Below the pieces are notes generated by a model. That model made no database searches. It saw only the letters and a list, made by a program, of their open reading frames with translations, and was not told where the DNA came from. From Candidatus Poseidoniales archaeon (GTDB taxonomy: Archaea > Thermoplasmatota > Poseidoniia > Poseidoniales > Thalassarchaeaceae): a stretch of DNA of 64,000 nucleotides. Position 1 is the first letter of the stretch. Each line of letters opens with the position of its first letter. The stretch covers positions 17,927-81,926 of the forward strand of contig DUAE01000028.1 in assembly GCA_012960975.1 (NCBI GenBank), in the 5' to 3' direction. Positions 1,420 through 19,571 of this stretch are shown here, piece by piece. The position numbers were made by a program, and so were the translations under genes.

Positions 1420-2589
1420 ATGAAGAATGCCTACGCAGTGTACGTGGCAGAGGACAATTTATGGGTTCAACCTGTTGAAAACTCCTTGGATGCCATTCTA
1501 CATGGAATGAAATATAGCGATGGGGTTGAGTTCGATTTACGCTTAACCAAGGATAAACGACTAATTCTCCATCACGATCCACGCGATTCAGATAATCGTT
1601 ATCTAGAGGAATATGAATCAGACAAACTCGACAATAGCCTAATTTATTTTGATGAGTTATTAGAAAAATCAGAATTTGTCGATCCTTGGATAAATCAAGC
1701 AAAAATCGCTTGCATCGAATTAAAGGCACCCCATCCAAAATCAAGAGTTGGTGGTGGCTGGTTCGGAAATGAAGCATGTGTGAGCCATATGAAGGATATG
1801 ATTCAATTAGTAAATGAAAATATTTCTGCGTTTGACATCCCAAAAACGAGCAAAGTAATTTACTCATTTGAACCCCTCACGATGAAAGCTGCTCGAGCCT
1901 TTGGAGATGAACATGATTTTGCACAATTAATGCCACATCTACGACAATGGGGGACGACTACAGTTCAACGAATGATGGGGACACCTTCATTCATCTCCCA
2001 TTCTCTACCTCGCCTAGTTGAACGTCATCGAGCAAAAGGCTCACCCCTCCTACCATGCGCTTCTACATATCTTTTCGGCCTTCGTCGCCATCTTACTCTT
2101 GGAAGAACAATTAGTTTGACTCCTGCATCGATTGAGAGATTGAATCGATCAAGAAAGGGCTATCCAATTTATATTTGGCCGGCATATCTCAAAATCGAAC
2201 ACACATTACAAAAATCAGGAATTACAACTCTAACCGACTATTTGGATCCAAATCTCTACACACTTCCAGGAGGAGATGCACGGTGGATTAAGCCGGCTAC
2301 ACAACCGTTGTTACCGGAACAAAAAATCGAATTGGAATTAGCACCCATTGAGATGCACAAAGAATTGATTGATGAATTGAGGTCAAATGTCACCCCTTGG
2401 CACGAATTATCGCCATCACAGAGGCGTGCGCACCTATCGACCTGGAGAAAGAATTGGTATTGGGAAAAAAGCCTCGATGAGTTGTTTGATCTCTCTAATT
2501 CTAACAGATTGCCATGGGAAGTGGTTCGAATGGTGGGTCATCGAGGAACTGGAAAAAATATTCTCCCAAATTATTCCAATCTACGATGA
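1420..2589 (+). CDS. Glycerophosphodiester phosphodiesterase (GDPD)-like protein, atypical
   Basis: ORF 1411-2589 starts at TTG; the first ATG is at 1420. VENSLDAILHG...DGVEFDLRLTKDKRLILHHD and CIELK resemble the GDPD motifs ENTL, E.D..LTKDG..V.HD and E.K. The N-terminal HRG motif is missing, but MVGHRGTGKN sits at the extreme C-terminus. Confidence 0.5.
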   Translation: MKNAYAVYVAEDNLWVQPVENSLDAILHGMKYSDGVEFDLRLTKDKRLILHHDPRDSDNRYLEEYESDKLDNSLIYFDELLEKSEFVDPWINQAKIACIELKAPHPKSRVGGGWFGNEACVSHMKDMIQLVNENISAFDIPKTSKVIYSFEPLTMKAARAFGDEHDFAQLMPHLRQWGTTTVQRMMGTPSFISHSLPRLVERHRAKGSPLLPCASTYLFGLRRHLTLGRTISLTPASIERLNRSRKGYPIYIWPAYLKIEHTLQKSGITTLTDYLDPNLYTLPGGDARWIKPATQPLLPEQKIELELAPIEMHKELIDELRSNVTPWHELSPSQRRAHLSTWRKNWYWEKSLDELFDLSNSNRLPWEVVRMVGHRGTGKNILPNYSNLR

Positions 2590-3740
2590 GGTTGATTTTT
2601 TGGAATATATTTTGGTCGATAAATTGGCGTTCCTCGGCCACCACGAGCATTTCGTTCATCAAGAATTTGGGCACTTATTCCAGCTACACGAGCCCACCCG
2701 AAGAAAGTCGTATAGTATTCTGGCATCCTAAATCCAACCGAATTTAATAAACTTCCACTTGCGATATCAACATTAGGGTATGGATTACTAATTTTTGGGA
2801 TCTCTGATAAGATCGGTGGAACGACTTCTCTCAGTGCCTTGACGATTTGAAAATTATCGTCATCTGGACATATTTCTTCTCCGAGTTCGATGAGTAGTCT
2901 CGCCCGAGGATCTTCAGCTCGAAGAACACCGTGACCGAATCCATAAATTGGCCGCCGATTTGCTAATTCTTCACGAACAAATTCTTCAATCTCTTCGTGA
3001 TTTGATGTTCCAATTCGTTGAACGAACTCCAAACAAGATTGGTTTGCACGACCATGTAATGGCCCTGAAAGTGCATTCATTGCACTTGAAAGTGATGAGT
3101 AAATACTAGCCCATCCAGATGCGACTGCTTTCCCTGAAAAGGTCGAAAGATTGCCACCCCCATGATCCATGTGTAAAATGAAGAAGAACCTGAGAACATG
3201 CGTGACTTTCTCTGCTCTTTCACCTTCATAACCCATCATGTGAACAAAATTTTCAACAAGACCAAGTTCTGGTTTACGAGGCTTAAGTTTGTCTTCAACT
3301 CCATTTCTCAATCTGAAAATTCTCGCCATCAATTCAGGCATTCTAGCAATTAAATTCATCGCATCAGCTCGAGTGTCACCTGTCGTCTCCGCAGTACCAA
3401 GAGCCATTATTCCAATCGATAACCAATCCATTGGATGGCCCGACCCTGGTGTTAATGATTCCAATACTCTCAATGCACCAGTTGGAATGTTTTTACCACG
3501 TTGTGCTAGTTCTGCACGGAATTCTTTCGATTCATGGTCAGATGGTAATCTCTTGTACATCAGAAGAAAAATAACATCTTCTTCTTCCAAATCTACTAGG
3601 TCCTCTACTGGATACCCGACATAATGAATCCCCTCAATGGGATCGACATAAGAGGTCTGACAAGTACCTACTGGAATTCCTCGTAATCCTGTATCGAGAT
3701 GCTTGTCTGTCACTGTGAACAAATCTTCACCATCTACCAT
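2571..3740 (-). CDS. gltA: Citrate synthase
   Basis: 389 aa. Motifs: GIHYVGYPVEDL, LHMDHGGGNLSTF (HxDH..N.ST) and GFGHGVLRAEDPRA (GFGHxV...DPR). Confidence 0.92.
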   Translation of the reverse strand: MVDGEDLFTVTDKHLDTGLRGIPVGTCQTSYVDPIEGIHYVGYPVEDLVDLEEEDVIFLLMYKRLPSDHESKEFRAELAQRGKNIPTGALRVLESLTPGSGHPMDWLSIGIMALGTAETTGDTRADAMNLIARMPELMARIFRLRNGVEDKLKPRKPELGLVENFVHMMGYEGERAEKVTHVLRFFFILHMDHGGGNLSTFSGKAVASGWASIYSSLSSAMNALSGPLHGRANQSCLEFVQRIGTSNHEEIEEFVREELANRRPIYGFGHGVLRAEDPRARLLIELGEEICPDDDNFQIVKALREVVPPILSEIPKISNPYPNVDIASGSLLNSVGFRMPEYYTTFFGWARVAGISAQILDERNARGGRGTPIYRPKYIPKNQPHRRLE

Positions 3741-4527: not shown

Positions 4528-5715
4528 TCAGATTAATCTTAATTCAGGTCCTACCTTTTCGAACAATCTTAACACTTCATTGAGATCATCTTGATTCAAG
4601 CCAGCAGACATCTGTGTTCGAACCCTCGCTTGATCCCTCGCAACCATTGGGAAAACTATCGCACCTGCCATTACCCCTTCCTCACCTAATCGTTGAGACA
4701 AATTCTTTGCTACGATTGAATCGCCACACATTACCGGTATTATTGGAGTTTCAGATAACCCAGTATCGAAGCCCATAGATTGAAGTTCATTTCTAAAATA
4801 AATGGTATTCTCCCATAATTTTGCATGATGTTCTGGCTCGCTCATCAAGACCTCTATTGATGCTTTTTGTGCAGCGGCTACACCCGGCGGTTGACTGCCA
4901 GATAGGAGCCAAGAACGAGAATGATTCAATGCATAATTACGCACTTCTTCTGAACCTGCTACTATTCCACCTTGAACACCAAGTGCTTTAGAAAATGAAC
5001 CGATTTCAAAATCAACCTTACCTTGAAGTTTGAAATGATCGACAATTCCAGCACCTCCTTTGCCGAGGACACCTTCTCCATGACAATCGTCAACAAAGAC
5101 CATCGCACCATATTCTTCCGCTAATGTTGTAATTTCATCTAACGGTGCGATGTCACCATCCATGGAGAAAACTCCATCGGTGATAATCAATTTACGATCT
5201 GAATCCCCATGAGACTTTAGAACCGCCTCTAAAGCCCCCATATCTTTATGAGAATATACCCCTCTAGCAGCTTTAGTTAGACGTACACCATCAATGATAG
5301 ATCCATGGTTTAATTCATCACTGATAATTACATCTTGTGGCCCTTGGACAAGTGATGGAATTAAACCTACATTGGCGGTATAGCCTGCTGAATATATCAG
5401 AGCGGATTCTACGCCTTTAAATTCTGCAACTTTCTTTTCCGCATCAAGATGGATGTCCATGGTACCAGCGATTGCCCGGACCGAGCCACTTCCTGCACCG
5501 TATTTTTGAGTAGCTTCAATCATCGCCGAAACAACCCTTGGATGATTTGTCAAATTAAGATAATTATTAGCAGACAACATTATTGTTGGCCGACCATTCA
5601 TGATACATCTAGGCTCATTCGCAGTTTCGAGAGTTGGAGGATTCCAATCCAATCCTTCTCGCTGTAGGTCAGCAAATTTCTCAGACATCCAAGATGTGTC
5701 GCCGGGCATGAACAT
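4528..5715 (-). CDS. PLP-dependent alpha-oxoamine synthase (glycine C-acetyltransferase / 8-amino-7-oxononanoate synthase family)
   Basis: 395 aa. Motifs: GSGSVRAIAGT, YTANVGL, DDCHGEGVLG and the PLP-lysine motif GSFSKALG. The Kbl versus BioF choice cannot be resolved by eye. Confidence 0.85.
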   Translation of the reverse strand: MFMPGDTSWMSEKFADLQREGLDWNPPTLETANEPRCIMNGRPTIMLSANNYLNLTNHPRVVSAMIEATQKYGAGSGSVRAIAGTMDIHLDAEKKVAEFKGVESALIYSAGYTANVGLIPSLVQGPQDVIISDELNHGSIIDGVRLTKAARGVYSHKDMGALEAVLKSHGDSDRKLIITDGVFSMDGDIAPLDEITTLAEEYGAMVFVDDCHGEGVLGKGGAGIVDHFKLQGKVDFEIGSFSKALGVQGGIVAGSEEVRNYALNHSRSWLLSGSQPPGVAAAQKASIEVLMSEPEHHAKLWENTIYFRNELQSMGFDTGLSETPIIPVMCGDSIVAKNLSQRLGEEGVMAGAIVFPMVARDQARVRTQMSAGLNQDDLNEVLRLFEKVGPELRLI

Positions 5716-6736: not shown

Positions 6737-7189
6737 ATGGGCAAACCGCAACCCATGGATATGAGAGGCTATATCACAAGTGGGCTAGGCAGAGCTCATG
6801 TTTTCATGGCTCAGTCTCATTATCAAAATCAATTCAAGAAAGTTCTCGACGCAGGAGCTTGGCCGGGTACTTTGAATTTAGATTTAGAAGGCGAAAACCT
6901 AGAATTTTACAAAAATCTAAGAATAATTGCAGGTTTAGATGAAGGCAAAGTCAATTTGGGCCCAGAACCTTTGAGGATACAAGGATTTGAGAGAGATGGA
7001 AAATCATTCGGGGGTGCGACTGCATTCAGAGGTGAAATTTCAATCGATGGGGAAAATTGGATTTCATGCGCCATATTAATTCCGGATCTGACCCGACATA
7101 CAAAAATTGCAGAGATTATCTCGGGATCTTTTCTTCGCGAAAGCCTTCCTTGTTCCGATGGTGATGAAGTTCAAATCAGATTGAATTGA
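6737..7189 (+). CDS. ribK: CTP-dependent riboflavin kinase (archaeal RibK)
   Basis: 150 aa. GLGRAHVFMAQSHYQNQFKKVL...WPGTLNLDL matches the archaeal riboflavin kinase (MJ0056-type) signature G.G.G......Y..qf.....PGTLN. Confidence 0.8.
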   Translation: MGKPQPMDMRGYITSGLGRAHVFMAQSHYQNQFKKVLDAGAWPGTLNLDLEGENLEFYKNLRIIAGLDEGKVNLGPEPLRIQGFERDGKSFGGATAFRGEISIDGENWISCAILIPDLTRHTKIAEIISGSFLRESLPCSDGDEVQIRLN

Positions 7190-8039
7190 GAGAAATTAAC
7201 CATTCTCGTTCCAAAAGTAACCCCATTTCGAGTTTTGCCATCGAGAGCCACCTTTTGTATCGAGTTTTATCTTGGGGTTGAACTGTAAATGAGGATGTTT
7301 CTGCAATTGAATCCAATCCCATACCATCAGAATCTTTGTGTTCGATTTTCCAAAGTATGAGTCCATGTGATTGATTTCTTCCGAGATCGGAAGATATTTC
7401 GGGAGAATTCAGAGCAGATTTAACCTCCTCAATATTTATTCTGCCTGAAACTACTCCGGTGAGAGCTGAAGCGATTCGTCTAACTTGATTCCACAAAAAC
7501 GCTTCAGATTTAATGGAAAAACCAACAAGCCGACCCTTATCACTATACCATGGTTCGCAATTATCTATGGTTCTATTAGGGTTAATATCCTTCTCAAGAC
7601 GGCAAAAATTTGTGAAATTATGGTTGCCAACAAATAAATCACAAACATCCCCAAATAAATCTTCATCAACAATTTCAGGCCATTCTTCACTCATTTCAGT
7701 TCGAAATAGATATGTTCTGCTGATCGCACCCCGGCTCCTAACCATTGAATTGACAAAACGTAAATCCCAAATCGACATTGAGGGAGACAATTTATTATTC
7801 AAAACTCTAATAATCGTTGATTTGGGGACATTATCATATACTTTTTGTGGAATATCGATGCAGGCTAAATTCATTCTGACATTCACACCTGCGTCCGTCC
7901 GGCTTGACATTTCTAAACATCCATCCTCCCACCAAGTAATCTTGCGAAGTGCATATTCAATTTCCCCTTGAACAGTAGAAACATTAGGTTGAATTTGGGA
8001 GCCATGAAACGCTTCGCCATGGTATCCAAAAGCGACCAT
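7176..8039 (-). CDS. truA: tRNA pseudouridine synthase A
   Basis: The ORF runs to 8057 (TTG). ATG at 8039 gives MVAFGYHGEAFHGSQIQP (the YdG..f.G.Q.Q motif). The catalytic SRTDAGVN motif is present. Confidence 0.85.
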   Translation of the reverse strand: MVAFGYHGEAFHGSQIQPNVSTVQGEIEYALRKITWWEDGCLEMSSRTDAGVNVRMNLACIDIPQKVYDNVPKSTIIRVLNNKLSPSMSIWDLRFVNSMVRSRGAISRTYLFRTEMSEEWPEIVDEDLFGDVCDLFVGNHNFTNFCRLEKDINPNRTIDNCEPWYSDKGRLVGFSIKSEAFLWNQVRRIASALTGVVSGRINIEEVKSALNSPEISSDLGRNQSHGLILWKIEHKDSDGMGLDSIAETSSFTVQPQDKTRYKRWLSMAKLEMGLLLEREWLISLNSI

Positions 8040-8070
8040 AATTCGGCCGCGGTGCAAATGAATCCCCCGA

Positions 8071-8619
8071 TTATTCCTCGGTAGAGAGGTACTCGACTGC
8101 TTCTTCTGCTGAAGGGAATCCGAGGCCTAGCAATGCGAATTCGATCGCCACTGCCACAAATTGCTTCGCGAAAGGATGACTTCGATCAAAGTTGGTTTTC
8201 AAATCGATAGATTCCATCAACATTCTTGCCGCTTCATATAGATGGAATGAAACATCGACATCGTCTTGTGAATCTCCAAGTACCTTCAATTTTTGAAATT
8301 CTCGAACAGCCATTGGAACCCTATCAAATTCGATTAGAGCATTGGCATATGCTGCCAAATAATCTGCATTATCTGGATCTAATCCAGCCGCCTTTCTCAA
8401 GTATGATTGAACTTTTCCTTCGTTGATTTTATCCTTGCCAGAATTATCCATATTACCATTTTCTTGAATTTCAAACATTGCCGCTTCAGCCCAACCATGG
8501 AAACCAGCAGGGTCTTTAGGGTTAGTCGCAATGTGTGATTCAAATATTTCCATAGCCCCAATAAAGTCACCTTGGGTGATGTGTTGTGCTGCAATTGTAA
8601 TAACATCCTCTTCAGACAT
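8071..8619 (-). CDS. Hypothetical protein, TPR-like helical repeats
   Basis: 182 aa and acidic. The repeat-like helices GDFIGAMEIFESHIATNPKDPAGFHGWAEA and DPDNADYLAAYANALIEF resemble TPR. Confidence 0.4.
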   Translation of the reverse strand: MSEEDVITIAAQHITQGDFIGAMEIFESHIATNPKDPAGFHGWAEAAMFEIQENGNMDNSGKDKINEGKVQSYLRKAAGLDPDNADYLAAYANALIEFDRVPMAVREFQKLKVLGDSQDDVDVSFHLYEAARMLMESIDLKTNFDRSHPFAKQFVAVAIEFALLGLGFPSAEEAVEYLSTEE

Positions 8620-8681
8620 GTCGAATCCTCTTAACTCGGGTCGAACGCTATTCGGTTATGAACGGTACGGAATCAATACCT

Positions 8682-9659
8682 TCATTCATTAGACCGAGAC
8701 ATCTCTAAAAGTCCAGGTCTTCCTTGCTTTCTATCCATCATTTCATTAACTATTTTGTAAACAAGCATTGGGTTATTAACACCATACAAACTATTTGCTG
8801 GACTCTGGACCAAATCTACTCGTTCCCGTTGAACGAACAATAATACTTTCAATAATTTGAAAAATTTCTTAGTCGTACTTACTTCCTCATTATTGATTAA
8901 TTCACTACTATCTTCGTCAGAATGGTCTGCCGCAACATTATCTTCATCTTCAGTCAAGATTATCACATTGCCAAACCCGATTAATTTCGCAATAAATGAT
9001 TGTTGAGTTTTAACGTTCAAAATCATATTGTAAGGGATTACTCGAGAATAAACTCCCATGGATAATATTCGTCGACGTACATGTATCATTTTATCAGTTA
9101 CCACATATTGAAATGAAGTTTGGTATAAAATAGTTACAAACAACATTAATCCGCTCGTCACTAAACCTAAAACAAGGAACCAATGATCTAACCATAAAGG
9201 AAAGGGGTTTGAAACATCATATCCAAATAATTCCAAAATTACTTCAATCCAATGAGAAAAAACCCAAATTGATGGAATTAAACCTATGACTATCAAGCAA
9301 GTAGTTGTCCACCTTCCAGATGTTGAGAAATTCAAAAAATGATTAATTCTTGCAAATATCAACATGAATAAAACAAAACTTAGCATATCGATTTTATCGA
9401 AAACTAATAGTAGCATTCTTAGTATAATATTCAAGCCATCTCCTTGAAATTTCACTTCTTCTGCGACCCAAAAGAATGACAGATGTATCAGAAAAATCAG
9501 TCCCACTAAAAAATATCTTTCTAACATCGAAAAAGCTGATGGAAAACCCGCCCAAATGACTTCTTCTTCATCTGAAATCTTAGAAAATTTACCTCTTATT
9601 ATCTCCTCGTCTAATTCAGATTTAGCTTCATCGACTATATCTTGAATCATTGTACTCAC
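8682..9659 (-). CDS. Membrane protein with bacterial-type PH (bPH_2/YdbT-like) domain
   Basis: 325 aa with several TM spans. The segment YVVTDKMIHVRRRILSMGVYSRVIPYNMILNVKTQQSFIAKLIGFGNVIILTED resembles bPH_2. Confidence 0.5.
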   Translation of the reverse strand: MSTMIQDIVDEAKSELDEEIIRGKFSKISDEEEVIWAGFPSAFSMLERYFLVGLIFLIHLSFFWVAEEVKFQGDGLNIILRMLLLVFDKIDMLSFVLFMLIFARINHFLNFSTSGRWTTTCLIVIGLIPSIWVFSHWIEVILELFGYDVSNPFPLWLDHWFLVLGLVTSGLMLFVTILYQTSFQYVVTDKMIHVRRRILSMGVYSRVIPYNMILNVKTQQSFIAKLIGFGNVIILTEDEDNVAADHSDEDSSELINNEEVSTTKKFFKLLKVLLFVQRERVDLVQSPANSLYGVNNPMLVYKIVNEMMDRKQGRPGLLEMSRSNE

Positions 9660-9712
9660 TCGTTTATTTAAACATTATTTTCAAAGATATATACTAATTT
9701 CATAGTCATAAT

Positions 9713-10912
9713 TTAATGGAGTAAACCCCAAGCGTGTTCGGCATTTCCAACCAACCATTCATAATCTTTCAACGTGCGAAGACCCTGTTCGTCTAGAATC
9801 GCTATTCTCTCCACTTCAAGGGGATATTCATTGTAAGTTAAGTGGCTAACCATTCCAGCTCGAGTTGGTTGATCAAATGTCCATCGCGCGCGAGAAACAG
9901 CTCGGATTTCGACAGAAATTTGAGTTCTCCCATTCCAAATTCTAATTCTAAATCTAGGTAATGAATTTCCTTCTTCATCGCGTAGAGGGGTTTCTCCTTT
10001 CTTCGGCTCAATCAATTCAAGCTCACATCGTTTGAAATTCTCAGTTCTATCCCTCCGAGCATCATGAAAGATTCCGGTTCCAACATTTGGATTGCGGAAA
10101 ATATCACGAATCCTCCACGGTCTGTCGTCGACGTTGAAGCAAGTCATCGAGACATGGGGCATAAACCAATCTAGATAGGAACCATCATCAAAATGAAGCA
10201 TACCCCAAAACCAGGGGAAACTTGGAGCTTGAACGCTGACCTTCTGAAAATAGGCAGTACCATTCATCCTCTCTCCATCCACCAATAATTTTGCTTCTGT
10301 ACCTTGGATGCGGAGGATATCATAACCCATGTTAGCGAAGAAAATATTATTCCTATACGTAAGAGTGCTAGGTCGACCCCAAGTAGGTGTTAATTCTGCT
10401 TCAAAAGTAGCAGGGGCACCTTCTTTTCTAGATTTATCATCACTGACCAAATTTAACCAGAACCTCCTCTCGCCTTCATCTAACCCTATAGAAATATCTT
10501 CATCGGTGAACGGCACAACTGCTCCAGCACCGAGGCCACTTCCTTCACCAGGCCATAAAGGATGTTTATCATCAATCGAAGCCATTTTACATTCACGCAT
10601 TAGCATGGATTCGTACATTTTATCACCATCAAACCACCATGAACAAATCATTCCTGGAATGATATGACCACCATGTTCATCAATTTTTATTCTATATTTG
10701 GGATTCCACCAATAATCGTTTACCCGGATGATTGGAGTATCTTTTGATGACCAAAGAACCATCAATTGTTTTGATTTTTGAGGATCATCAGGATTCGGAA
10801 TGAAGATGATAACCCACCACCACCACCAAGAGAGACGGCGAAGAGGTGGCATGGCATCTAATCGCCATAAAGATGAAAAATCTCCGACAAACTTAGATAA
10901 TTTCTCTCTCAT
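9713..10912 (-). CDS. AttH/CrtC (hydroxyneurosporene synthase)-like beta-barrel protein; last gene of the ABC operon
   Basis: 399 aa. The N-terminal RLSWWWWWVIIF..LMVLW and GTAYFQKVSVQAPSFPWFWGMLHFDDGSYLDWF resemble the AttH/CrtC motifs EWWY... and G.AW.D.qW....W.Wf.l.l.DG. It starts 9 nt after the upstream permease stop. Confidence 0.45.
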   Translation of the reverse strand: MREKLSKFVGDFSSLWRLDAMPPLRRLSWWWWWVIIFIPNPDDPQKSKQLMVLWSSKDTPIIRVNDYWWNPKYRIKIDEHGGHIIPGMICSWWFDGDKMYESMLMRECKMASIDDKHPLWPGEGSGLGAGAVVPFTDEDISIGLDEGERRFWLNLVSDDKSRKEGAPATFEAELTPTWGRPSTLTYRNNIFFANMGYDILRIQGTEAKLLVDGERMNGTAYFQKVSVQAPSFPWFWGMLHFDDGSYLDWFMPHVSMTCFNVDDRPWRIRDIFRNPNVGTGIFHDARRDRTENFKRCELELIEPKKGETPLRDEEGNSLPRFRIRIWNGRTQISVEIRAVSRARWTFDQPTRAGMVSHLTYNEYPLEVERIAILDEQGLRTLKDYEWLVGNAEHAWGLLH

Positions 10913-10921
10913 TAAACCGCC

Positions 10922-12571
10922 TCACATGATTTCTCGGTTTCTGAAAACTGCCTGACCCATACCAACCATTAGTACGGTCACTACCAACAGTAGAACGATG
11001 CTCACAATCAAAGCAACTACTGGATTACCAGTCTGAAGTGTATGAACTGGAGGATGCCAAAACCAAGAAATTCCTGTTTCTAGATTGAATGCTGAAGACA
11101 TTTCTTGGTACTGTAATGTATCTGGCCAAACGATTAGTACTACTGCATCAATCATCTGTATCCCCCAATGTGAAACAGAGAGAACAGGAATCGTAGCATT
11201 TGGTATTGTAATCGTAAATAATCCCATTAAAAATTCCCACACACCGAAAATAATGCAGATGTAGACACCATATTTTGGAGAGATTAAGCCTAGGGTATTG
11301 AACACAGCACCGTAAGCAGCCAAAACGAGAATTGTTGCAAATGCAATTCCTAACCAAACAGGGAAATCCCCCAATCGAATAAGGTCGTCCCCTGGACCTA
11401 TGACTGAAGTGACTAGAGACATCATAAATACCATAATAAACACAAAAGTTCCTACCAAAGCCATGTAGCCTAATAACCGATAAAGAATGAATTCCGCACG
11501 ATGAATCGGTTTAGACAAGAGGTAATGCAAAGTGCCATTTTCTGTTTCATCACGGATTAAACCTAGGGCAAGGAATAAGGGTAAAAATAGTCCAAGAATC
11601 ATGACAAATGCAATTTTGCCAGTGCCAATAATGAAGGTGCGGTGACTTGATTCCCCGAGAAACTTAGAATCATCTGGATCTTCGTCGACGTTTGAATCAG
11701 CACTTATTGAAATAATTTCACCTAAATCATTCACAATCCAGATTACATCACAAGGAATTCCGTTACGATTTTGATCCATATTCTCTTGAATTGGGTTTCC
11801 TTGGGAATCTATCCAACCAATCTTCAAACAATCGCCATCGTCATCGAATCCCTGGCTTGAGGTTCCCAATTTGAAATCCCAATCAATGTCGTCTTCGTCA
11901 ATATACATCGAAGCCGGGTCAGGATCAATTTCAACATAGTCAGTCAATCGACCCCAACTAGCACTATATTGGTCTGGAACTTCAAGAGTCCCTTCGGCAA
12001 TAAATCCGATGCCATACATCAGATATGTACCATTATCAAATTTACAAGCAGTCTCCCACCTTAAGTTCGAATCAAAATCTAAATTCTCGTCAGAGCAAAC
12101 TTCAACATCGTTCCAATCTACAGTTTCCGACCACTGATCCCAAATAGGAGGGTCATGATTTATCCAAGTTGGTGTAAAATATCCAACAACATTTACCCAT
12201 GTATGATTCCCTGTATGAGTCCTCGGTTGATCATTCCAATCAATATCATTTTCAAAGATAAAATAAGGATATCCAGGGTAAGAAAATTCATTATAATTAT
12301 CCGTCCCATACCTATTTTCTTGCCCAATTGGATAACCGTCTCCATCAGGATCTTCACTATCACCATCATTATCTATAGAATCGAAATCATCTCGAATCGC
12401 ATCAATATAAAATGCTAGAAGCATCACCATGAGAAGCATTCCGACACCGAAGACAACCCAAGTAGACATCCTATGTCGTAGTTGACGAATAGTCAGTTCA
12501 ACGATTGCTCCGGCTTTGCGATCCAACCTGGTCCACACGGTTTCAGAAAGTGCTCTACCTTTCTCATCCAT
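10922..12571 (-). CDS. ABC-2-type transporter permease with large Asp-rich ectodomain
   Basis: 549 aa. TM1 lies at aa ~37-57 and is followed by a roughly 260-aa polar region containing DNDGDSEDPDGDG, DDDGDC and NVDEDPDD. Five or six C-terminal TM spans follow. The start ATG overlaps the upstream ATPase stop (TGATG) and is preceded by GGAGGTGA. Confidence 0.65.
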   Translation of the reverse strand: MDEKGRALSETVWTRLDRKAGAIVELTIRQLRHRMSTWVVFGVGMLLMVMLLAFYIDAIRDDFDSIDNDGDSEDPDGDGYPIGQENRYGTDNYNEFSYPGYPYFIFENDIDWNDQPRTHTGNHTWVNVVGYFTPTWINHDPPIWDQWSETVDWNDVEVCSDENLDFDSNLRWETACKFDNGTYLMYGIGFIAEGTLEVPDQYSASWGRLTDYVEIDPDPASMYIDEDDIDWDFKLGTSSQGFDDDGDCLKIGWIDSQGNPIQENMDQNRNGIPCDVIWIVNDLGEIISISADSNVDEDPDDSKFLGESSHRTFIIGTGKIAFVMILGLFLPLFLALGLIRDETENGTLHYLLSKPIHRAEFILYRLLGYMALVGTFVFIMVFMMSLVTSVIGPGDDLIRLGDFPVWLGIAFATILVLAAYGAVFNTLGLISPKYGVYICIIFGVWEFLMGLFTITIPNATIPVLSVSHWGIQMIDAVVLIVWPDTLQYQEMSSAFNLETGISWFWHPPVHTLQTGNPVVALIVSIVLLLVVTVLMVGMGQAVFRNREIM

Positions 12572-13515
12572 CAGGAATCACCTCCAACTAAATATCCGAG
12601 AAGAGATTCTAAATTGTCATCGGGATTATCAATTGAAGTTACTGCAATTTTTGATTCGACAATGACTCTTGGTAATACCGAATGAGCCTCTGAAAGATTG
12701 TTGGTTTGGATTTCAAGCTTGCCGTCCTCAGGGAATCGAACACCGTAAATTGGCTTCTCACCGATGAATGCGGAAGCTAATTTTCTTGGTTCATCCGTAG
12801 TCAACATAATTCTGTGAGGATGTTTATCCAATAATCCACGAATAGCATGTAAATTTCCAAGTGCAAGTAATCGACCATTGTGAAGAATTACGATTTGTTC
12901 AGTAATCCTTTCAATTTCTTCTAGAATATGGCTTGAGACGAGAACAGTCTTTCCTTGAGAACCAAGTTCCCTGATTACATTCATTATGCTGGTTCTAGCT
13001 ATAGGGTCACAACCATGCAATGGCTCATCTAGAATTATTAAATCCGGATCATGAACCAATGCATGTGCGATTTTTACCCGTTGTCTCATACCTTTGCTAT
13101 ACTTTCCAATTTCCTTATGCCGAACATCATGTAATCCTACGAAACGTAATACATGCTCCGCACGTTTATTCGCTTCGTCTCTTGTCATTCCATGAAGCCT
13201 TGCTAGAGTTGATACAAAATCTTGAGCTGTCATCCAATCATAGAGTCTTTCTGATTCACTAACATAACCGATTCTGCGATATGGAGATGTGTCTTTCCAT
13301 GGATCGATTCCGAAAAGGCGAACGCTGCCTTGGCTCGGTTTCAATCGACCCATTAAAAGTTTGAACAACGTTGATTTCCCAGCACCATTTGGCCCAAGAA
13401 TTCCCGTGACTCCCCCATCTATTGCTAAAGAAACATCATTTAATCCAATTACTTGATCATACCATTTCGAAGTATTTTCCATCAATACTGTTGGAATTAC
13501 TGTATCAACACTCAT
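12571..13515 (-). CDS. ABC transporter ATP-binding protein
   Basis: Walker A GPNGAGKST, signature YSKGMRQR and Walker B LIILDEP. Confidence 0.9.
   Translation of the reverse strand: MSVDTVIPTVLMENTSKWYDQVIGLNDVSLAIDGGVTGILGPNGAGKSTLFKLLMGRLKPSQGSVRLFGIDPWKDTSPYRRIGYVSESERLYDWMTAQDFVSTLARLHGMTRDEANKRAEHVLRFVGLHDVRHKEIGKYSKGMRQRVKIAHALVHDPDLIILDEPLHGCDPIARTSIMNVIRELGSQGKTVLVSSHILEEIERITEQIVILHNGRLLALGNLHAIRGLLDKHPHRIMLTTDEPRKLASAFIGEKPIYGVRFPEDGKLEIQTNNLSEAHSVLPRVIVESKIAVTSIDNPDDNLESLLGYLVGGDS
12578..12585 (-). promoter_or_regulatory. Shine-Dalgarno site (GGAGGTGA) for the ectodomain-bearing ABC-2 permease
   Basis: The minus strand reads GGAGGTGAttcctgATG, with 6-nt spacing to ATG 12571. Confidence 0.55.
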
Positions 13516-14531
13516 TCCCTAGTCACCTCCAATGAACTGACTCGAGTAGTCAGTATTCCGATAGAAATTGCGTTCATCAATAAGATTGAAACTATTGATA
13601 ATGACAACGGGTGATCATAATTCAATTCGATACCGAGGAGATATTGGCCGATATGAGCTAGACAATCGTACGGACTCAAAATATATAGAATTGAAGACCC
13701 GAATTGAGCATCGACCAATAATGCGACGAGTTTTGTGCCGTAGATTACGCTCAAGAATGCAATTGCAGAGAAAAATCTACTTTGACTTATACTAGATAGC
13801 GCTAATCCTATCGAAGTATAGGTGAAAACTAACAAAATTCCACAAAATAATCCGGCGATAAATAATGGCAGGGTGTCTACGAGATAAGCCCAGCCTTCTC
13901 CTCGGAAAACTATTGCAGCAGTGTAATATGCAACATAAGAAAAGATGATGACGAATCCTAATATTACTGCGACACTGATGAATTTCATTATCGTGTAATC
14001 GGTTCGAGTTACCGGTCTTGAGAAATATATCGCGCTAGTACCATTTCTTCTATCATCAGAGATCATACCACCTACAACCATCGCTGTTAAAAGCGGCCAA
14101 AAACATAAGTTTCGAGGAAAATATCCCAATACTTGCCCCCATAAATTATAACGATTCACACCCCACAACCTGGCTAGTTCATCTTCTGAACCCCCGAATA
14201 GAGAGGAAAGGAATAACATCGCGATTGGAGTAAGTGCACCGAGGAAAATTACAGCAATCGATAATCGTACAAAAGCATGATACTGACGATGACCCTTTGA
14301 GGTAAATAATCCGTAGACATGATGACGGAATATCGCATAATTTCTAATCCATCGAGGCCCTAATTCACCTTCCCATGGTCGGTATTTTTGTTCGAAAATT
14401 GCCCCCATTGAAGCTTCATGAGAGACGACTTTAGCCGAAGCTTCTTCGTCGCCATCCCCAGAGCCATAAGCCACTTCCATCCTAGTCAGGCCACCTTCCA
14501 AATTGACCTCGCCTTCAGAAATACTCATCAC
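13512..14531 (-). CDS. ABC-2-type transporter permease
   Basis: 339 aa with six hydrophobic spans. It overlaps the upstream ATPase by 17 nt and the downstream ATPase by 4 nt (ATGA). Confidence 0.65.
   Translation of the reverse strand: MMSISEGEVNLEGGLTRMEVAYGSGDGDEEASAKVVSHEASMGAIFEQKYRPWEGELGPRWIRNYAIFRHHVYGLFTSKGHRQYHAFVRLSIAVIFLGALTPIAMLFLSSLFGGSEDELARLWGVNRYNLWGQVLGYFPRNLCFWPLLTAMVVGGMISDDRRNGTSAIYFSRPVTRTDYTIMKFISVAVILGFVIIFSYVAYYTAAIVFRGEGWAYLVDTLPLFIAGLFCGILLVFTYTSIGLALSSISQSRFFSAIAFLSVIYGTKLVALLVDAQFGSSILYILSPYDCLAHIGQYLLGIELNYDHPLSLSIVSILLMNAISIGILTTRVSSLEVTRE
13523..13530 (-). promoter_or_regulatory. Shine-Dalgarno site (GGAGGTGA) for the second ABC ATPase
   Basis: The minus strand reads GGAGGTGActagggaATG, with 7-nt spacing to ATG 13515. 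Confidence 0.55.
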
Positions 14532-15513
14532 CTCCAGTATGTCCCTCAGTCATCAAATCCTTCGTACCCTTGACCTCTAGTCCCAATCGTTCCATGATTA
14601 ATAGGAAAATATCTTCAAGATCAGGTTTGTATTCGTTTAATTTACGTACTTGAACGTTACAATCTACTGCAGTGGATAAGATTAGATTGATTGTTTCAGG
14701 AGATTCTTGTTTGATCCTCATCACCCTTCCAAGCCGCCTAACCGACATTCCTCGTTTTTCTAATGCATTTTGCATCTTTGAAGATCCACCCCAAACTGAA
14801 ATCTCGATTTCGACATCAACCTGTTTCGCTAATTCATCGATTTGTCGATGAACTACAATTCTACCTTGATGGATCATTACAATATTTTCGCATACCTCTT
14901 GAATATCATCCATTACATGCCCACTCATCAAAACCGAACGACCACCATCTGTCACGGTTTTCCTCAACGTATCCAACATGAATGCACGGGCCCTCGAATC
15001 GAGCCCGTTCGTAGGTTCGTCACAAATCAATATATCAGGGTCATGAATCAATGCACACGCTAATTTAGTTGCCTGCTTCATTCCTGTGCTGAAGGTATCG
15101 ATTTTACGATATCGTTGATCTTTTAATCCAACATATTCCAAAACCTCATGAGCCCTTTGAGTCGCTTGTTTCGAATTCATGCCAAGTAATTCGCCCGAAT
15201 ATCGAACTTGATCAATGGCGTATAAATCCGGATCAAGTGAATCATATTCGGGCATATAACCGATTCTCGAGCGAATCATTTCACCTTGAGTCCGAATGTC
15301 ATAGCCGAGTACTCGGCCATCTCCAGACGTCGTCTTAATCAGACCGAGAATGCATTTGAAAAATGTCGATTTCCCAGCACCATTTGGCCCAAGGAAACCT
15401 GTTGCTCCTCTTTTTAATTTTAAATTAACACCATCTAGTGCCATGTGCGGGCCGTACATTTTCACGAGATCACTTGTCTCAATAACAAGGTCCGAATCAG
15501 ATGAAGTTACCAT
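14515..15513 (-). CDS. ABC transporter ATP-binding protein
   Basis: Walker A GPNGAGKST, signature FSTGMKQ and Walker B ILICDEPTNGLD. Confidence 0.9.
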   Translation of the reverse strand: MVTSSDSDLVIETSDLVKMYGPHMALDGVNLKLKRGATGFLGPNGAGKSTFFKCILGLIKTTSGDGRVLGYDIRTQGEMIRSRIGYMPEYDSLDPDLYAIDQVRYSGELLGMNSKQATQRAHEVLEYVGLKDQRYRKIDTFSTGMKQATKLACALIHDPDILICDEPTNGLDSRARAFMLDTLRKTVTDGGRSVLMSGHVMDDIQEVCENIVMIHQGRIVVHRQIDELAKQVDVEIEISVWGGSSKMQNALEKRGMSVRRLGRVMRIKQESPETINLILSTAVDCNVQVRKLNEYKPDLEDIFLLIMERLGLEVKGTKDLMTEGHTGGDEYF

Positions 15514-15575
15514 GGTTAGTCCGCCGACTCCTAAAGGAGTCGTGTAGCGCTCACACTGAAACCACTTGAATTAAT

Positions 15576-15596
15576 CCCCGGCGGGGCTGTCAAAAA
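15576..15596 (-). terminator. Possible tgtA terminator: T5 run directly after the stop plus a short GC hairpin
   Basis: The minus strand reads TAG-ATTTTTGACAG-CCCC-GCC-GGGG. Oligo-T tracts are the usual archaeal termination signal. Confidence 0.35.
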
Positions 15597-15597
15597 T

Positions 15598-17763
15598 CTA
15601 TTGATTATCCTTTAGAGCACCATCACGAACACGTACCGCGATGCCTTTAGTGAGGAAGGCCATCTCCCTAGCTCCTGTAACAGCGATTCCATGTGCGACC
15701 AAATCACCTTCAGAATCAACGACTAAACAAGGTTGGCCAGGAGTTAGATGAGGGTCGGCTCCAAGAACGTAACCTTGCATGACATTCCGACCAACTCCGA
15801 CGAATGGAATCGCATCATCACGTAATAAAACTCGAGCAATTCCAGGGTGGTCAACCTCCTCACCATCAAATTCTTCCCCAAATTCAAGAGGAGGTGAGGG
15901 ATTCAACAAATTGAGACGTCTAGCTCCAAATAATGTCAATGAAATTGCTCCATCCATCAAACGTGGAGAAAGAATGTGTTCATCATTTGAATGAACATTA
16001 ATCATTCGATCGGTTCTGGAACGGCGACTAAACATACCTTCAGTAATTTTACAACCATCATGAGGAGTAATTCCATTCAGAACCGATAATTTATCTACAA
16101 TCGTACATCGGTCGAGCCAATTTCGAATTTCAATAGTTTGGGCAGGATCGAAGTCAGAAATAGGGGCAGGGGTCAACCTCTCAACTGGCAATCCATCTAG
16201 CCCCAACTCGACTAAATCATCGATGATGTTTTCGATATCAGAGAATTCTGACCATATCTCATCACTACAATCAATGTGGCACCATGGTGAGACGTCTTCG
16301 AGAGAATATGGCAGTAATCCAATAGGTGTCGAGAGAAGAATTACTGACTTGGGAACTTCGATTAAAGATGATATTACTGTGTGTAATGCAGTTTCGCGCC
16401 AAGGGGGGGAAACGCCCTCAATTATCACCACTCGCTCTGGCTCACCTGTAGAAGAATCCCACCAACTTCCAGGTAAGCGCCACCTAGTCGCTAACAATGA
16501 TTCTAGATGTAAAATATGGGGCCTAAATTCAATATCTTCGGATAGATTTTCACCGCCATCTCGAATCGGATTTGTTGATGCAATACCTCGCAGTGAACTG
16601 ATTCCAATCGGACCCTCATCCGGTGATATCATTTGATCGATTACCCATAGAAAAGCTTCACGTAATTGAGGAGAAGCATGGCTTCTCTGCTCTGCTAGTT
16701 GCCAAATTTTTCCATTTCGAACAGCCTCTCTACAACGCGCCAATTCCGCTTGTGTAATCTCGAGATTGTGGTGAGCGATTAGAACACCCCGTTCTTTATC
16801 TCCCATTGCTCTAACTTCAGCAGGAGTTTTCCCAAATAATGCTGATGATGAAATTGGCCACTCAGTTAAATTAGCTAATTTTAGAGTGCCGGTTGGTGTC
16901 ATCAACCGATTATCCCTAGCAAAAAGTGCATACGCGGCTGAATCAAATAAATCCGTGCCGAGGGCGATAGCCAATGGGAATAACAGGGGGTGGCCGCAGC
17001 CGAATAGATGGATGGGTCGGTTTGGTGGAATCGTTGACCTCGCTGCTAGTAATATTTCGAATAATTCTCGGTATCTCTGCCGCTCCATCAATGGAACTAT
17101 CCCCCCGATTGGATGCACTGCAAAACCACGCACATCCCCTGTGACCTGCCCCATCTGCTCACCTGCAATTGCTCGTAAATCGGAGTATAATCCACCCTGA
17201 ATTGGCCCGTTAAGCAATAATTTTTCTCCTGCTAATTTCAATGAGATTGGAGCACGTGAAATTGTTTCTTCTACTGCGTGCTCGATTTGCTCACGTGTCA
17301 TGTCGGGTCTACCAAAAACGTCCAACATCGTACCGATATCTACGCCAAGGTTCTTTTGAAATTCGACAATTTCTTCAACACCAACCTCCACATCCCCATA
17401 AACATAGGATTGGAATGTACCTGAATCGGTCACGATTACTCCAGGGAAATCTAACAAGGCGTGAACACCATCTTTCAATCCAGGTTTGTGCAATCGATCA
17501 TGTTTCCATATAACATATGAATTTGTAATCAATCCTTCAATACCATATCGATCCCACATTTCACGAGGTTCAATCGTTCGAATATTAGGATTGACGACGG
17601 GTAAAAGCATTGGTGTATTTAGAACACCGTGTTTTGTGTGAAGTTTACCTAAACGCGCAGCACCATCTGCCTTGACAATTTCGAACTTTCCGAGGTCTTG
17701 AGGCCTACAGGGATTCGGGTCTGGTCTGTTACTCACAAAGGCATTGCGAGGACAATTGGTCAT
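15598..17763 (-). CDS. tgtA: Archaeosine tRNA-guanine transglycosylase with C-terminal PUA domain
   Basis: Motifs: FEIVKADGAARLGKLHTKHGVLNTPMLLPVVNP, VTDSGTFQ, HLFGCGHP and DLFDSAAY, plus a PUA-like C-terminus (GQPCLVVDSEGDLVAHGIAV). ATG at 17763 overlaps the upstream stop (TGATG). Confidence 0.9.
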   Translation of the reverse strand: MTNCPRNAFVSNRPDPNPCRPQDLGKFEIVKADGAARLGKLHTKHGVLNTPMLLPVVNPNIRTIEPREMWDRYGIEGLITNSYVIWKHDRLHKPGLKDGVHALLDFPGVIVTDSGTFQSYVYGDVEVGVEEIVEFQKNLGVDIGTMLDVFGRPDMTREQIEHAVEETISRAPISLKLAGEKLLLNGPIQGGLYSDLRAIAGEQMGQVTGDVRGFAVHPIGGIVPLMERQRYRELFEILLAARSTIPPNRPIHLFGCGHPLLFPLAIALGTDLFDSAAYALFARDNRLMTPTGTLKLANLTEWPISSSALFGKTPAEVRAMGDKERGVLIAHHNLEITQAELARCREAVRNGKIWQLAEQRSHASPQLREAFLWVIDQMISPDEGPIGISSLRGIASTNPIRDGGENLSEDIEFRPHILHLESLLATRWRLPGSWWDSSTGEPERVVIIEGVSPPWRETALHTVISSLIEVPKSVILLSTPIGLLPYSLEDVSPWCHIDCSDEIWSEFSDIENIIDDLVELGLDGLPVERLTPAPISDFDPAQTIEIRNWLDRCTIVDKLSVLNGITPHDGCKITEGMFSRRSRTDRMINVHSNDEHILSPRLMDGAISLTLFGARRLNLLNPSPPLEFGEEFDGEEVDHPGIARVLLRDDAIPFVGVGRNVMQGYVLGADPHLTPGQPCLVVDSEGDLVAHGIAVTGAREMAFLTKGIAVRVRDGALKDNQ

Positions 17764-19571
17764 CAATCCTCGCTTGAGCGAGAAATAACATTCAACTTGA
17801 CTTTATCATTCACAAGTTCAACACTTATCTCATCGCCGGAGTTAATTGCGAGGGTTGGATCACCCTCAAATCCATGAGCATATGGCACGCTGAGAAGAGA
17901 AGCTGCGGGAAGAGTCAATGGGCAAACATCTCTGTTGATTATCCCTTTAGGCCCTTTTCCTGTATAGATTAATCCCATTAATACGAAGGGTGCAACGGTC
18001 GAACCAGAACCCTTTGGATAGATAAAAATTGTATCTTCAATCGCAACTCCATCAAGAGGATGCCCTGGATCTTCAATTACACCAGTATCGCGATTCACAT
18101 ATCCAAGATAGGTGATTGGAACATCGCTGACCAAAGCCTTTCCTTGGATTTGCCATTCAGATTGACTCGGTAAACTCGAGCCAATCATTTCACAATCTCC
18201 ACTCTGGTATGTTTTGTTGGAATGCATTGGCACCGAGGCTTTGGTTTTCAAAACTGGTCGTATAGATTTAATCAGTGTTGAATCAAAAGCGTGTGCTACG
18301 CATTCGTAAATGGGTGCTACGCTAGTCGGCATTCTATTCAAACCAGAGGTCAAATAATGTTCTGCTTTGAGAGAATTAGTCAAGATGTGGTTGAATTTTT
18401 TACGGTTGTAAGGAGTTACCTCTGGGCATGTATCGCGCAATACCAAAGCCCCGGATTCTTCGAGAATATCTATCGTTCCATCCGCTTCAAGCAATTTATA
18501 ATTATGTCCACTGGTGAATATCCACAAACGGTGATCTGAAATTTTTTCACCTAATTCCATTCTTGCCCTGACTGCTGCTGCAGTGGCTCGAACCTCACCA
18601 ACACTGGCTTGGGGGCAACCGATGACTACTAGGTCAACAATTCCTGTTGGCGCTAAGTCCCGATACCTGCCACGAAGATCATCATCAGAAAATGTCAGAT
18701 ACCCCTCATATGATTCAACTGCTGGCGCTTTGACTGTTTGACCATCTGCCCACAATAAAGGGCAACCATAATTCGCAGCCGCAGCTGCTAATGCTTTTCG
18801 CATCTCAAAACTTGCGGATTCGGGCAATCCACGAATCCGTGGCATCATCCCCCAAGGTAGATCCCAATTCGGGAGAATTTGCTTACCAATCCAATCTCCA
18901 AGAATGCTCCAATCAGTCAAATCATCCATAGGACATTCAACGTCAACGAGGATATTTGGCATTCGATTGGAATCAATATGTAATCCCCAATAAGGTGCCC
19001 ATCCCGTTAATGCTGTAGCAAGGGCTGACAAACCAGATTCTCGGTTTGTAATCAAAGAAGTGTAGGAATTGGAAAAACATACTGCATTTGATTCGGCCCA
19101 CGAACCTATTCCCTCTACCAAGTCTAATTCACTATCATAAGGGGTACAAGAAAGAGTTGCTTCGATACCAAGTTCGGAATAGGCGTGAATTATTTCGAAT
19201 TGATGTTCTAAAAAATTAGGATAATCTATTTCCATCTCATCCATTCTATGTTGGTCACATCCTGCAGAATTCAAAGTCGTTGGAATCGAGACTATACCCT
19301 CTGAGTCGCCAGAAATATCTGCCAAAAACTTCCGTAAACCGTGCCCACCGGTAATTACACTCACCCCCGACACGTGAGCATGCTCACATCGAATGAATTC
19401 ATCAGCCCCAGCAGTCGATGCGAGATCAACAACTAATCTAGCCGCCTTCTGCTTGGTTGGTCCATTCCCGCCAGCAAGCATCAATTGTAACTCTGTTGGG
19501 ATGTTCACATTATGCTCGGCGTGACCGTCCCCCTTCAATTCAACGCAATACTCCACTACAAAATTCGTCAA
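17763..19571 (-). CDS. Aconitase X family protein, fused large (DUF521) and small/swivel (DUF126) domains
   Basis: 602 aa. The N-terminal LQLMLAGGNGPTKQKAARLVVDLASTAGADEFIRCEHAHVSG is the DUF521 pattern. The C-terminal GKALVSDVPITYLGYVNRDTGVIEDPGHPLDG...IFIYPKGSGSTVAPFVL is the DUF126 pattern. Confidence 0.75.
   Translation of the reverse strand: MTNFVVEYCVELKGDGHAEHNVNIPTELQLMLAGGNGPTKQKAARLVVDLASTAGADEFIRCEHAHVSGVSVITGGHGLRKFLADISGDSEGIVSIPTTLNSAGCDQHRMDEMEIDYPNFLEHQFEIIHAYSELGIEATLSCTPYDSELDLVEGIGSWAESNAVCFSNSYTSLITNRESGLSALATALTGWAPYWGLHIDSNRMPNILVDVECPMDDLTDWSILGDWIGKQILPNWDLPWGMMPRIRGLPESASFEMRKALAAAAANYGCPLLWADGQTVKAPAVESYEGYLTFSDDDLRGRYRDLAPTGIVDLVVIGCPQASVGEVRATAAAVRARMELGEKISDHRLWIFTSGHNYKLLEADGTIDILEESGALVLRDTCPEVTPYNRKKFNHILTNSLKAEHYLTSGLNRMPTSVAPIYECVAHAFDSTLIKSIRPVLKTKASVPMHSNKTYQSGDCEMIGSSLPSQSEWQIQGKALVSDVPITYLGYVNRDTGVIEDPGHPLDGVAIEDTIFIYPKGSGSTVAPFVLMGLIYTGKGPKGIINRDVCPLTLPAASLLSVPYAHGFEGDPTLAINSGDEISVELVNDKVKLNVISRSSED

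Follow-up and report, generated by a model that had tools for sequence, protein, structure and literature searches.

In bacteria, AttH-type proteins are encoded next to ATP-binding cassette (ABC) transporters. The report on the structure of AttH NE1406 (PDB 2ICH) described a systematic association of AttH with ABC transporters and proposed a lipid or isoprenoid role (PMC2954199). In the bacterial loci of the present analysis, the gene order was ATPase-FtsX-AttH, the permeases matched FtsX and MacB_PCD, and attH was the last gene of the ABC operon, with an overlapping or nearly overlapping junction. In archaea, the AttH-like protein Hgs hydrates the tails of glycerol dialkyl glycerol tetraether (GDGT) lipids downstream of Ted, a radical S-adenosylmethionine (radical-SAM) desaturase (10.1101/2025.10.20.683597). 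Here we describe an operon in a 64,000-nucleotide (nt) stretch of DNA from a Candidatus Poseidoniales archaeon, a member of the marine planktonic Marine Group II (contig DUAE01000028.1, positions 17,927 to 81,926; hereafter the window). Five open reading frames (ORFs) on the minus strand at 9713-15513 encode an ABC ATP-binding protein (ATPase1), an ABC-2 permease (perm1), a second ATP-binding protein (ATPase2), a second ABC-2 permease (perm2), and a protein of 399 amino acids (aa), X399. X399 is predicted to have an AttH-like fold, and its gene is fixed behind the ABC genes across the order Poseidoniales. A preliminary description of the window, made from the sequence alone, had proposed this gene order and an archaeal origin, and had pointed to attH of Agrobacterium, which sits together with an ABC transporter in the attE-H locus. 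The ORF coordinates agree with the order and the bacterial loci with the association of attH and ABC genes, and the archaeal origin is borne out by the ArcTGT gene at the locus and by homologues named Candidatus Thalassarchaeaceae.

Fold, family and location of X399

The structure of X399 was modelled with AlphaFold2 (AF2) from 24 homologues, and the all-beta model (pLDDT 86.5, pTM 0.90) was compared with the PDB using Foldseek. The top match was the putative AttH NE1406 (2ich_A; E 2.9e-9, TM-scores 0.46/0.55), followed by kievitone hydratase (7A0Q; 5.5e-8) and by the fungal Diels-Alderases Fsa2, Phm7, and their relatives (about 1e-6). Ranks 1-13 were occupied entirely by AttH-fold structures (2ich_A/B, 7a0q/7a0t, 7e5t/7e5u, 7e22, and 7dmo; E 2.9e-9 to 1.4e-6, probability 1.0, TM-scores 0.40-0.55). 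The outer-membrane barrels listed after them had E values of 2e-3 or worse and probabilities of 0.25 or lower. These results support an AttH-like fold for the modelled protein, that is, two predicted lipocalin-like barrels packed orthogonally.

Sequence families were then considered separately from the fold. X399 matched no Pfam family at E up to 0.1 and no NCBIfam model, and nothing significant was found in the PDB (phmmer and profile A1) or in PADLOC. A profile was built from 31 diverse members of the X399 family (A2). At E up to 1, none of the 31 matched PF07143 (CrtC N-terminal domain) or PF17186 (Lipocalin_9), whereas all three of the bacterial AttH proteins scanned against Pfam, out of five taken from plasmids, matched both (PF07143 at 3.8e-61 and PF17186 at 5.8e-43). 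CrtC, tocopherol-cyclase, and Svf1 likewise gave 0 matches among the 31, the sole oddity being one DUF7064 match at 0.026. The AttH/CrtC likeness put forward in the preliminary description thus holds for the fold but not for membership in the Pfam family, for neither X399 nor any other of these family members reaches the PF07143 and PF17186 gathering scores. A word-seeded search returned 395 homologues of X399, and an exhaustive hidden Markov model (HMM) search returned 286 representatives at 50% identity; all are named 'hypothetical protein'.

Profile comparisons pointed weakly to the same bacterial relative as the structure search. When the PDB was searched with A2 by hmmsearch, 2ich_A was the second-best match at an E value of 0.17, which alone is not significant; the alignment paired GtaYFQKV...PWyWg.hfeDGS with GTAWLDREW...GWDWISANLDDGS. 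An hhalign comparison of A2 with a profile of only the five bacterial AttH sequences (A4) was weakly positive (probability 66%, E 5.6e-5), with 146 columns aligned around the motif common to both. X399 and bacterial AttH have in common the core motif G-x-A-[WY]...W-x-W...DG. The equivalence with the AttH motif given in the preliminary description was reproduced in profile alignments, and both peptides quoted for X399 (RLSWWWWWVIIF and GTAYFQKVSVQAPSFPWFWGMLHFDDGSYLDWF) were found in its translation.

Bacterial AttH has a signal peptide or a lipobox, so it is extracytoplasmic, whereas X399 has neither. X399 also lacks a transmembrane (TM) segment (maximum 19-residue hydropathy 0.85), and with no hydrophobic segment it should be cytoplasmic or peripherally bound to the membrane. 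A Tat or Sec signal in the segment RRLSWWWWW was considered and rejected, since homologues do not keep the Arg pair and the WWWWW run forms a confident beta-strand of the barrel in the AF2 model.

The residues invariant in the X399 family (W92, Y221, Q223, W234, W236, Y360, E362, and E392) are aromatic, Gln, or acidic. Like the AttH-like isoprenoid hydratases, X399 has a conserved core that is rich in Trp and Tyr and contains acidic residues. In the hhalign alignment, the Y221/Q223/W234/W236 block corresponds to the bacterial AttH motif AWLD[RH]xW...WDW. The catalytic residues of CrtC are H239-x-W241 and Y266-x-D268 in the numbering of R. gelatinosus (PMC4717167). The H239-x-W241 pair probably lies at the [RH]-x-W positions of the AttH motif. 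In X399 the [RH]-x-W positions are K224-V-[S/T], and the catalytic H-x-W and Y-x-D of CrtC are not demonstrably conserved; the pair Y246-x-D248 is present in X399 of the Poseidoniales and is not invariant family-wide. E362 and E392 may be regarded as candidate acids.

The ABC-2 modules and their distribution

Both ATPases matched PF00005 (ATPase1 at 2.5e-29 and ATPase2 at 1.8e-31), and they share 40% identity with each other (BLASTP, E 4e-51). By pattern search, Walker A, the signature, and Walker B-Glu were intact in both, the signature of ATPase1 being FSTGM, and each translation shows an H-loop His (...SGHVM... and ...SSHIL...). Among the permeases, perm1 has about six hydrophobic segments and matched PF12679 (ABC2_membrane_2) at 2.6e-11, and perm2 matched PF12698 and PF12679; both scored above the PF12679/PF12698 gathering score. 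They are distant paralogues, with 26% identity over 107 residues. Pfam, the pattern search, and hydropathy thus show motif-intact ABC_tran ATPases together with ABC2_membrane permeases, the composition of an ABC-2 (type V) exporter, and the Pfam and NCBIfam matches agree with the two ATPases and two ABC-2 permeases first described. The best explanation is that ATPase1 with perm1 and ATPase2 with perm2 form two paralogous ABC-2 export modules.

The first two TM segments of perm2 are separated by a large predicted extracellular domain, an arrangement also present in ABCA transporters. In its AF2 model, which is mediocre (pLDDT 64), TM1 is followed by a beta-rich ectodomain and then by five TM helices. 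The ectodomain (residues 61-300) is strongly acidic (pI 4.05, 57 acidic vs 8 basic residues) and contains a DPDGDG calcium-binding-like motif and four invariant cysteines (C159/C176/C248/C274; alignment A6). Foldseek searches with this model gave weak matches to the membrane domains of ABCG, NosY, and PmtD and no structural relative of the ectodomain. In the Poseidoniaceae, similarity to perm2 splits into two segments around the ectodomain, and the matches end before the C-terminus.

The described exporters closest to these modules are of several kinds. The ATPases most resemble the nucleotide-binding domains of DrrA and of the ABCA lipid pumps: ATPase1 matched the drrA model TIGR01188 at 9.7e-66, below its cut-off, and its best PDB sequence matches were the nucleotide-binding domains of ABCA4/3/1/7 (E 1e-53 to 1e-48). 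The ABCA likeness is what members of the DrrA/ABCA group usually show, and it does not point specifically to a lipid substrate. Among solved structures, perm1 is closest to the ABC-2 permease PmtD of S. aureus (PmtCD complex, 6xjh; 4.5e-4), and the gene order ATPase-permease-ATPase-permease is that of PmtABCD, the phenol-soluble-modulin (PSM) exporter of Staphylococcus. The four archaeal ABC proteins might form one heterotetramer, as the preliminary description supposed, or two separate pumps; the solved PmtCD complex (PDB 6XJH), which stems from an operon of this order, reportedly contains just one ATPase species and one permease species. None of the operon proteins reached an NCBIfam equivalog cut-off for PmtABCD, DrrAB, GldAFG, or NosFY. 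The two ATPases scored 222 and 201 bits for drrA (cut-off 312), 198 and 190 for GldA (cut-off 403), and 126 and 119 for PmtA (cut-off 350); the scores for PmtD and GldF were 15.6 (cut-off 220) and 26 (cut-off 288). PmtABCD, DrrAB, ABCA, ABCG, and NosFY also differ from the archaeal operon in that none of them includes an AttH-fold component. A defence system was rejected as a candidate, since PADLOC showed generic ABC-ATPase similarity only.

We scanned one genome per species for loci of the X399 family, and 80 loci were returned (alignment A3). The family occurs in the Poseidoniales, in both Thalassarchaeaceae and Poseidoniaceae, in other Thermoplasmata, and in Bathyarchaeia, Methanophagales, Altiarchaeota, Micrarchaeota, Aenigmatarchaeota, Diapherotrites, and Nanohalarchaeota. 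Every Poseidoniales locus spanning the region kept the order ArcTGT-ATPase1-perm1-ATPase2-perm2-X399-bPH_2-TPR-TruA, so that the five-gene synteny expected in related genomes was found. In nearly all of the ~57 Poseidoniales loci, X399 starts -4, -1, or +8 to +10 nt from the stop codon of perm2, and this tight junction persists where X399 identity is only 42-50%. Its constancy argues for conserved co-translation. The junctions on either side of the operon, TGT-ATPase1 and X399-bPH, measured tens of nucleotides or more in the same order.

A gene-neighbourhood search across archaea went against the preliminary description: outside the Poseidoniales, the X399 family was never found beside ABC genes (22 loci). 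The link between X399 and the pump is thus an acquisition specific to the Poseidoniales rather than a property of the family, and the earlier term 'archaeal counterpart of AttE-H' gives way to 'lineage-specific analogue'. The nature of the two pumps leads to the same view. The bacterial attE-H pump has one ATPase and one fused MacB/FtsX permease, in contrast to the two ATPases and two ABC-2 permeases of the archaeal operon, which does not place an extracytoplasmic AttH after a MacB/FtsX pump. Because bacterial AttH is periplasmic and follows such a pump, we regard the archaeal operon as an analogue and not a counterpart. The pairing of an AttH fold with ABC genes in archaea and in bacteria looks like convergence rather than orthology.

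Some individual loci deserve mention. In an unclassified archaeal metagenome-assembled genome (SMAG_U8148; L006, 9081-9929), a co-directional gene for a UbiA-family prenyltransferase lies 62 nt upstream of the X399 homologue; it is the only isoprenoid-related neighbour among the 22 distant loci and is anecdotal. Equally anecdotal is a KamA-type radical-SAM (aminomutase) gene next to another homologue (L082). One uncultured archaeal contig (L083) carries two divergent X399-family paralogues ~2 kb apart, at 1778-2656 (+) and 4576-5466 (-). A perm2-X399-bPH-TPR-TruA block with 46% identity to X399 was found in JAOMAZ010000023.1 (L064), which is labelled 'Deltaproteobacteria bacterium AH-558-G13'; probably the contig is a contaminant, or the single-cell assembly was given the wrong label.

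Junctions, signals and flanking genes

The positions of the genes and signals are collected in Table 1. From ATPase1 to X399, the junctions calculated from the coordinates are -17, -4, -1, and +9 nt, as initially described. The start codon of perm1 is ambiguous, and the figure of -17 depends on the choice of GTG: the ATG at 14528 gives -14, and Met18 at 14480 gives +34. Since 95% of the window is coding and 11/32 of its co-directional junctions are of 10 nt or less, a single short gap is uninformative. Four short junctions in a row, flanked by spacers of 84 nt and 53 nt, exceed chance packing. The five genes presumably form one transcription unit and are co-transcribed.

Table 1. Features of the operon and its flanks (positions in the window).
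Feature	Position	Strand	Description
ATPase1	14515-15513	-	332 aa; ABC ATP-binding protein of DrrA/GldA/ABCA type
perm1	13512-14531	-	339 aa with GTG start; ABC-2 permease; start codon ambiguous
ATPase2	12571-13515	-	314 aa; second ABC ATP-binding protein
perm2	10922-12571	-	549 aa; ABC-2 permease with ~240-aa ectodomain between TM1 and TM2
X399	9713-10912	-	399 aa; soluble all-beta protein, predicted AttH-like two-barrel fold, unannotated archaeal family
GGAGGTGA	14528-14535	-	overlaps candidate GTG/ATG starts of perm1; Shine-Dalgarno function doubtful
GGAGGTGA	13523-13530	-	Shine-Dalgarno motif, 7 nt before ATPase2 ATG
GGAGGTGA	12578-12585	-	Shine-Dalgarno motif, 6 nt before perm2 ATG
Upstream spacer	15514-15597	-	84 nt, ArcTGT stop to ATPase1 start; likely operon promoter/leader
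Downstream spacer	9660-9712	-	53 nt, AT-rich, after X399 stop; contains TATA-like TTTAAATA
bPH_2-TPR-TruA	7176-9659	-	bPH_2-domain membrane protein (325 aa), small TPR protein (182 aa), and TruA, in the orientation of the operon
AcnX	17763-19571	-	602 aa; fused Aconitase-X (AcnX + swivel domain); overlaps ArcTGT start by 4 nt

The motif GGAGGTGA occurs in 5 copies on both strands of the window, compared with 1.8 expected from shuffles, and three of these, all on the minus strand, fall at internal junctions of the operon. The preliminary description had placed Shine-Dalgarno (SD) sites before the internal genes. This was right for ATPase2 and perm2, where the spacing is canonical. At perm1 the copy overlaps the GTG/ATG starts and therefore provides no SD site for them, and the start of X399 has only GAGGCGG ahead of it.

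The upstream spacer has a T5 run directly after the TGT stop and a ATTAATTCAAG element. A TTCAA(A/G) motif recurs in this spacer across related Poseidoniales loci and may be a promoter element. On the minus strand, the hairpin CGACUCC-UUUA-GGAGUCG covers an SD-like GGAG located 14 nt before the ATPase1 ATG; in the closest relative (L015), the stem of this leader hairpin is longer by a compensatory C-G pair. Over 20 loci with an SD-like motif in the leader, the predicted pairing probability of this motif was 0.83, compared with 0.65 when the upstream sequence was shuffled (p = 0.003). The overall fold of the ATPase1 leader was not significant (z -0.49), and an Rfam search of leader and operon gave 0 matches; on these two grounds a riboswitch or other known RNA was rejected. 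At the other end, the downstream spacer likely marks where the operon ends on its 3' side and holds the promoter of the gene that follows, which encodes the bPH_2 membrane protein.

The bPH_2-TPR-TruA trio follows X399 in all Poseidoniales loci that reach that far, and the adjacency of AcnX and ArcTGT is kept in the closest relative only. In archaea, AcnX enzymes act as phosphomevalonate dehydratases in the mevalonate pathway, but fused AcnX proteins are in most cases hydroxyproline dehydratases. Elsewhere in the window, 1 kb that seems free of ORFs (381-1410) belongs to a gene on the minus strand that continues past the window edge.

Possible roles of the operon

Our tentative reading is that the operon serves to export a hydrophobic molecule, probably an isoprenoid, after binding or modifying it. 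The Trp-rich barrel of X399 would capture this molecule on the cytoplasmic side of the membrane and might also alter it chemically, for instance by adding water to a C=C bond. From there the ABC-2 pumps would flip it into the outer leaflet or expel it from the cell. Possible substrates are a lipid or pigment made by the cell itself and a xenobiotic, which would be detoxified before its export. Kievitone hydratase, which has its fold in common with the X399 model, detoxifies a prenylated phytoalexin and sets a precedent for detoxification by hydration. Coupling of X399 to the pump, whether physical or functional, is presumed here, as is the nature of the substrate. A more definite version, a 'modify-and-flip' scheme in which a cytoplasmic AttH-fold enzyme hydrates or cyclises an isoprenoid lipid or pigment and hands the product directly to a two-module ABC-2 exporter that delivers it to the outer leaflet or the cell surface, convergent with AttE-H, seems to us improbable in that full form.

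Several observations weigh against a binding-and-export module. The X399 family matches no Pfam family. The conserved Asp, [RH], and Trp of bacterial AttH are replaced in the hhalign alignment by Q223-K224-x-[S/T]; if H239-x-W241 of CrtC lies at this place, as is probable, hydratase chemistry is not readable by homology. About a third of the co-directional junctions in this 95%-coding genome are of 10 nt or less. In the 22 non-Poseidoniales archaeal loci, X399 homologues had neither an ABC neighbour nor a recurrent neighbour of any kind, and X399 can therefore work alone. The colinear block of the Poseidoniales also takes in unrelated genes for ArcTGT, TruA, riboflavin kinase, and an aminotransferase; since it extends to such housekeeping genes, the synteny is partly order-wide colinearity. 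It could thus be that X399 is independent of the transporter, a stand-alone cytoplasmic enzyme or binder that, in a streamlined genome, came to lie closely after the ABC genes in the ancestor of the Poseidoniales and was inherited with them. The occurrence of homologues with no ABC neighbour and no shared neighbour in other archaeal lineages favours such independence, as do colinearity over 12 or more unrelated genes and the dense packing of the window, where ArcTGT overlaps even the unrelated AcnX by 4 nt. Still, the perm2-X399 junction of -4 to +10 nt is kept in both Poseidoniales families while the neighbouring junctions stay wide, and in bacteria, independently, attH closes an ABC operon and overlaps the gene before it. 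We consider independence of X399 rather unlikely, though it is the alternative that we take most seriously.

The module that we tentatively favour also has to be compared with roles taken from described systems. Because Hgs is an AttH-like protein that acts on archaeal isoprenoid lipids, and because X399 homologues occur in Bathyarchaeia and Methanophagales, lineages that have Hgs, X399 might be a lipid-tail hydratase making hydroxylated membrane lipids, with the pump incidental. Yet Hgs is AttH-like by annotation, is tied to GDGT producers, and overlaps the B12-radical-SAM gene ted, whereas the X399 family has no Pfam AttH match and, in the Poseidoniales, is tied to ABC pumps. No lipid radical-SAM gene was found beside any homologue, either in the Poseidoniales or in the 22 distant loci, the single radical-SAM neighbour being the KamA aminomutase noted above. 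Marine Group II genomes, moreover, are without Tes and Grs (PMC8941075) and therefore probably make no GDGTs. X399 is unlikely to be Hgs itself, the two being set apart by neighbours, Pfam matches, and lineage, and an Hgs-type role appears very improbable. The operon could otherwise be a peptide, toxin, or drug exporter like PmtABCD or DrrAB, or a pump for metallo-enzyme maturation like NosFY, in which X399 is an unrelated passenger or an immunity or accessory factor. The pmtABCD gene order, the relation of perm1 to PmtD, weak NCBIfam matches to PmtA/PmtD, DrrA, and GldA/GldF, and the name 'multi-copper enzyme maturation permease' given by JGI to perm2 homologues would fit this. Every one of those NCBIfam matches is far below its cut-off, however, and no NosD, NosL, NosZ, GldG, PSM-like, or drug-biosynthesis genes were found in the neighbourhood of the operon. 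The JGI name is merely a generic COG label, and with the Nos partner genes not found nearby, a Nos-type copper-maturation pump was rejected. An exporter of these kinds would also leave the conserved coupling to an AttH-fold protein unexplained, and we hold it to be quite unlikely.

The Poseidoniales rank among the most abundant planktonic archaea, and the lipid and pigment biology of the uncultured, very abundant Marine Group II is little known. AttH-fold proteins were linked to archaeal lipid modification just recently, via Hgs. The present analysis defines a separate archaea-wide family with a predicted AttH fold (about 286 clusters at 50% identity) that current Pfam and NCBIfam models do not detect, and finds it fixed to an ABC-2 export operon across one whole order. 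As a second, independent coupling of AttH and ABC genes, this operon may help to explain the role of bacterial AttH, and it offers a concrete target in the search for a new isoprenoid-modifying or lipid-trafficking activity.

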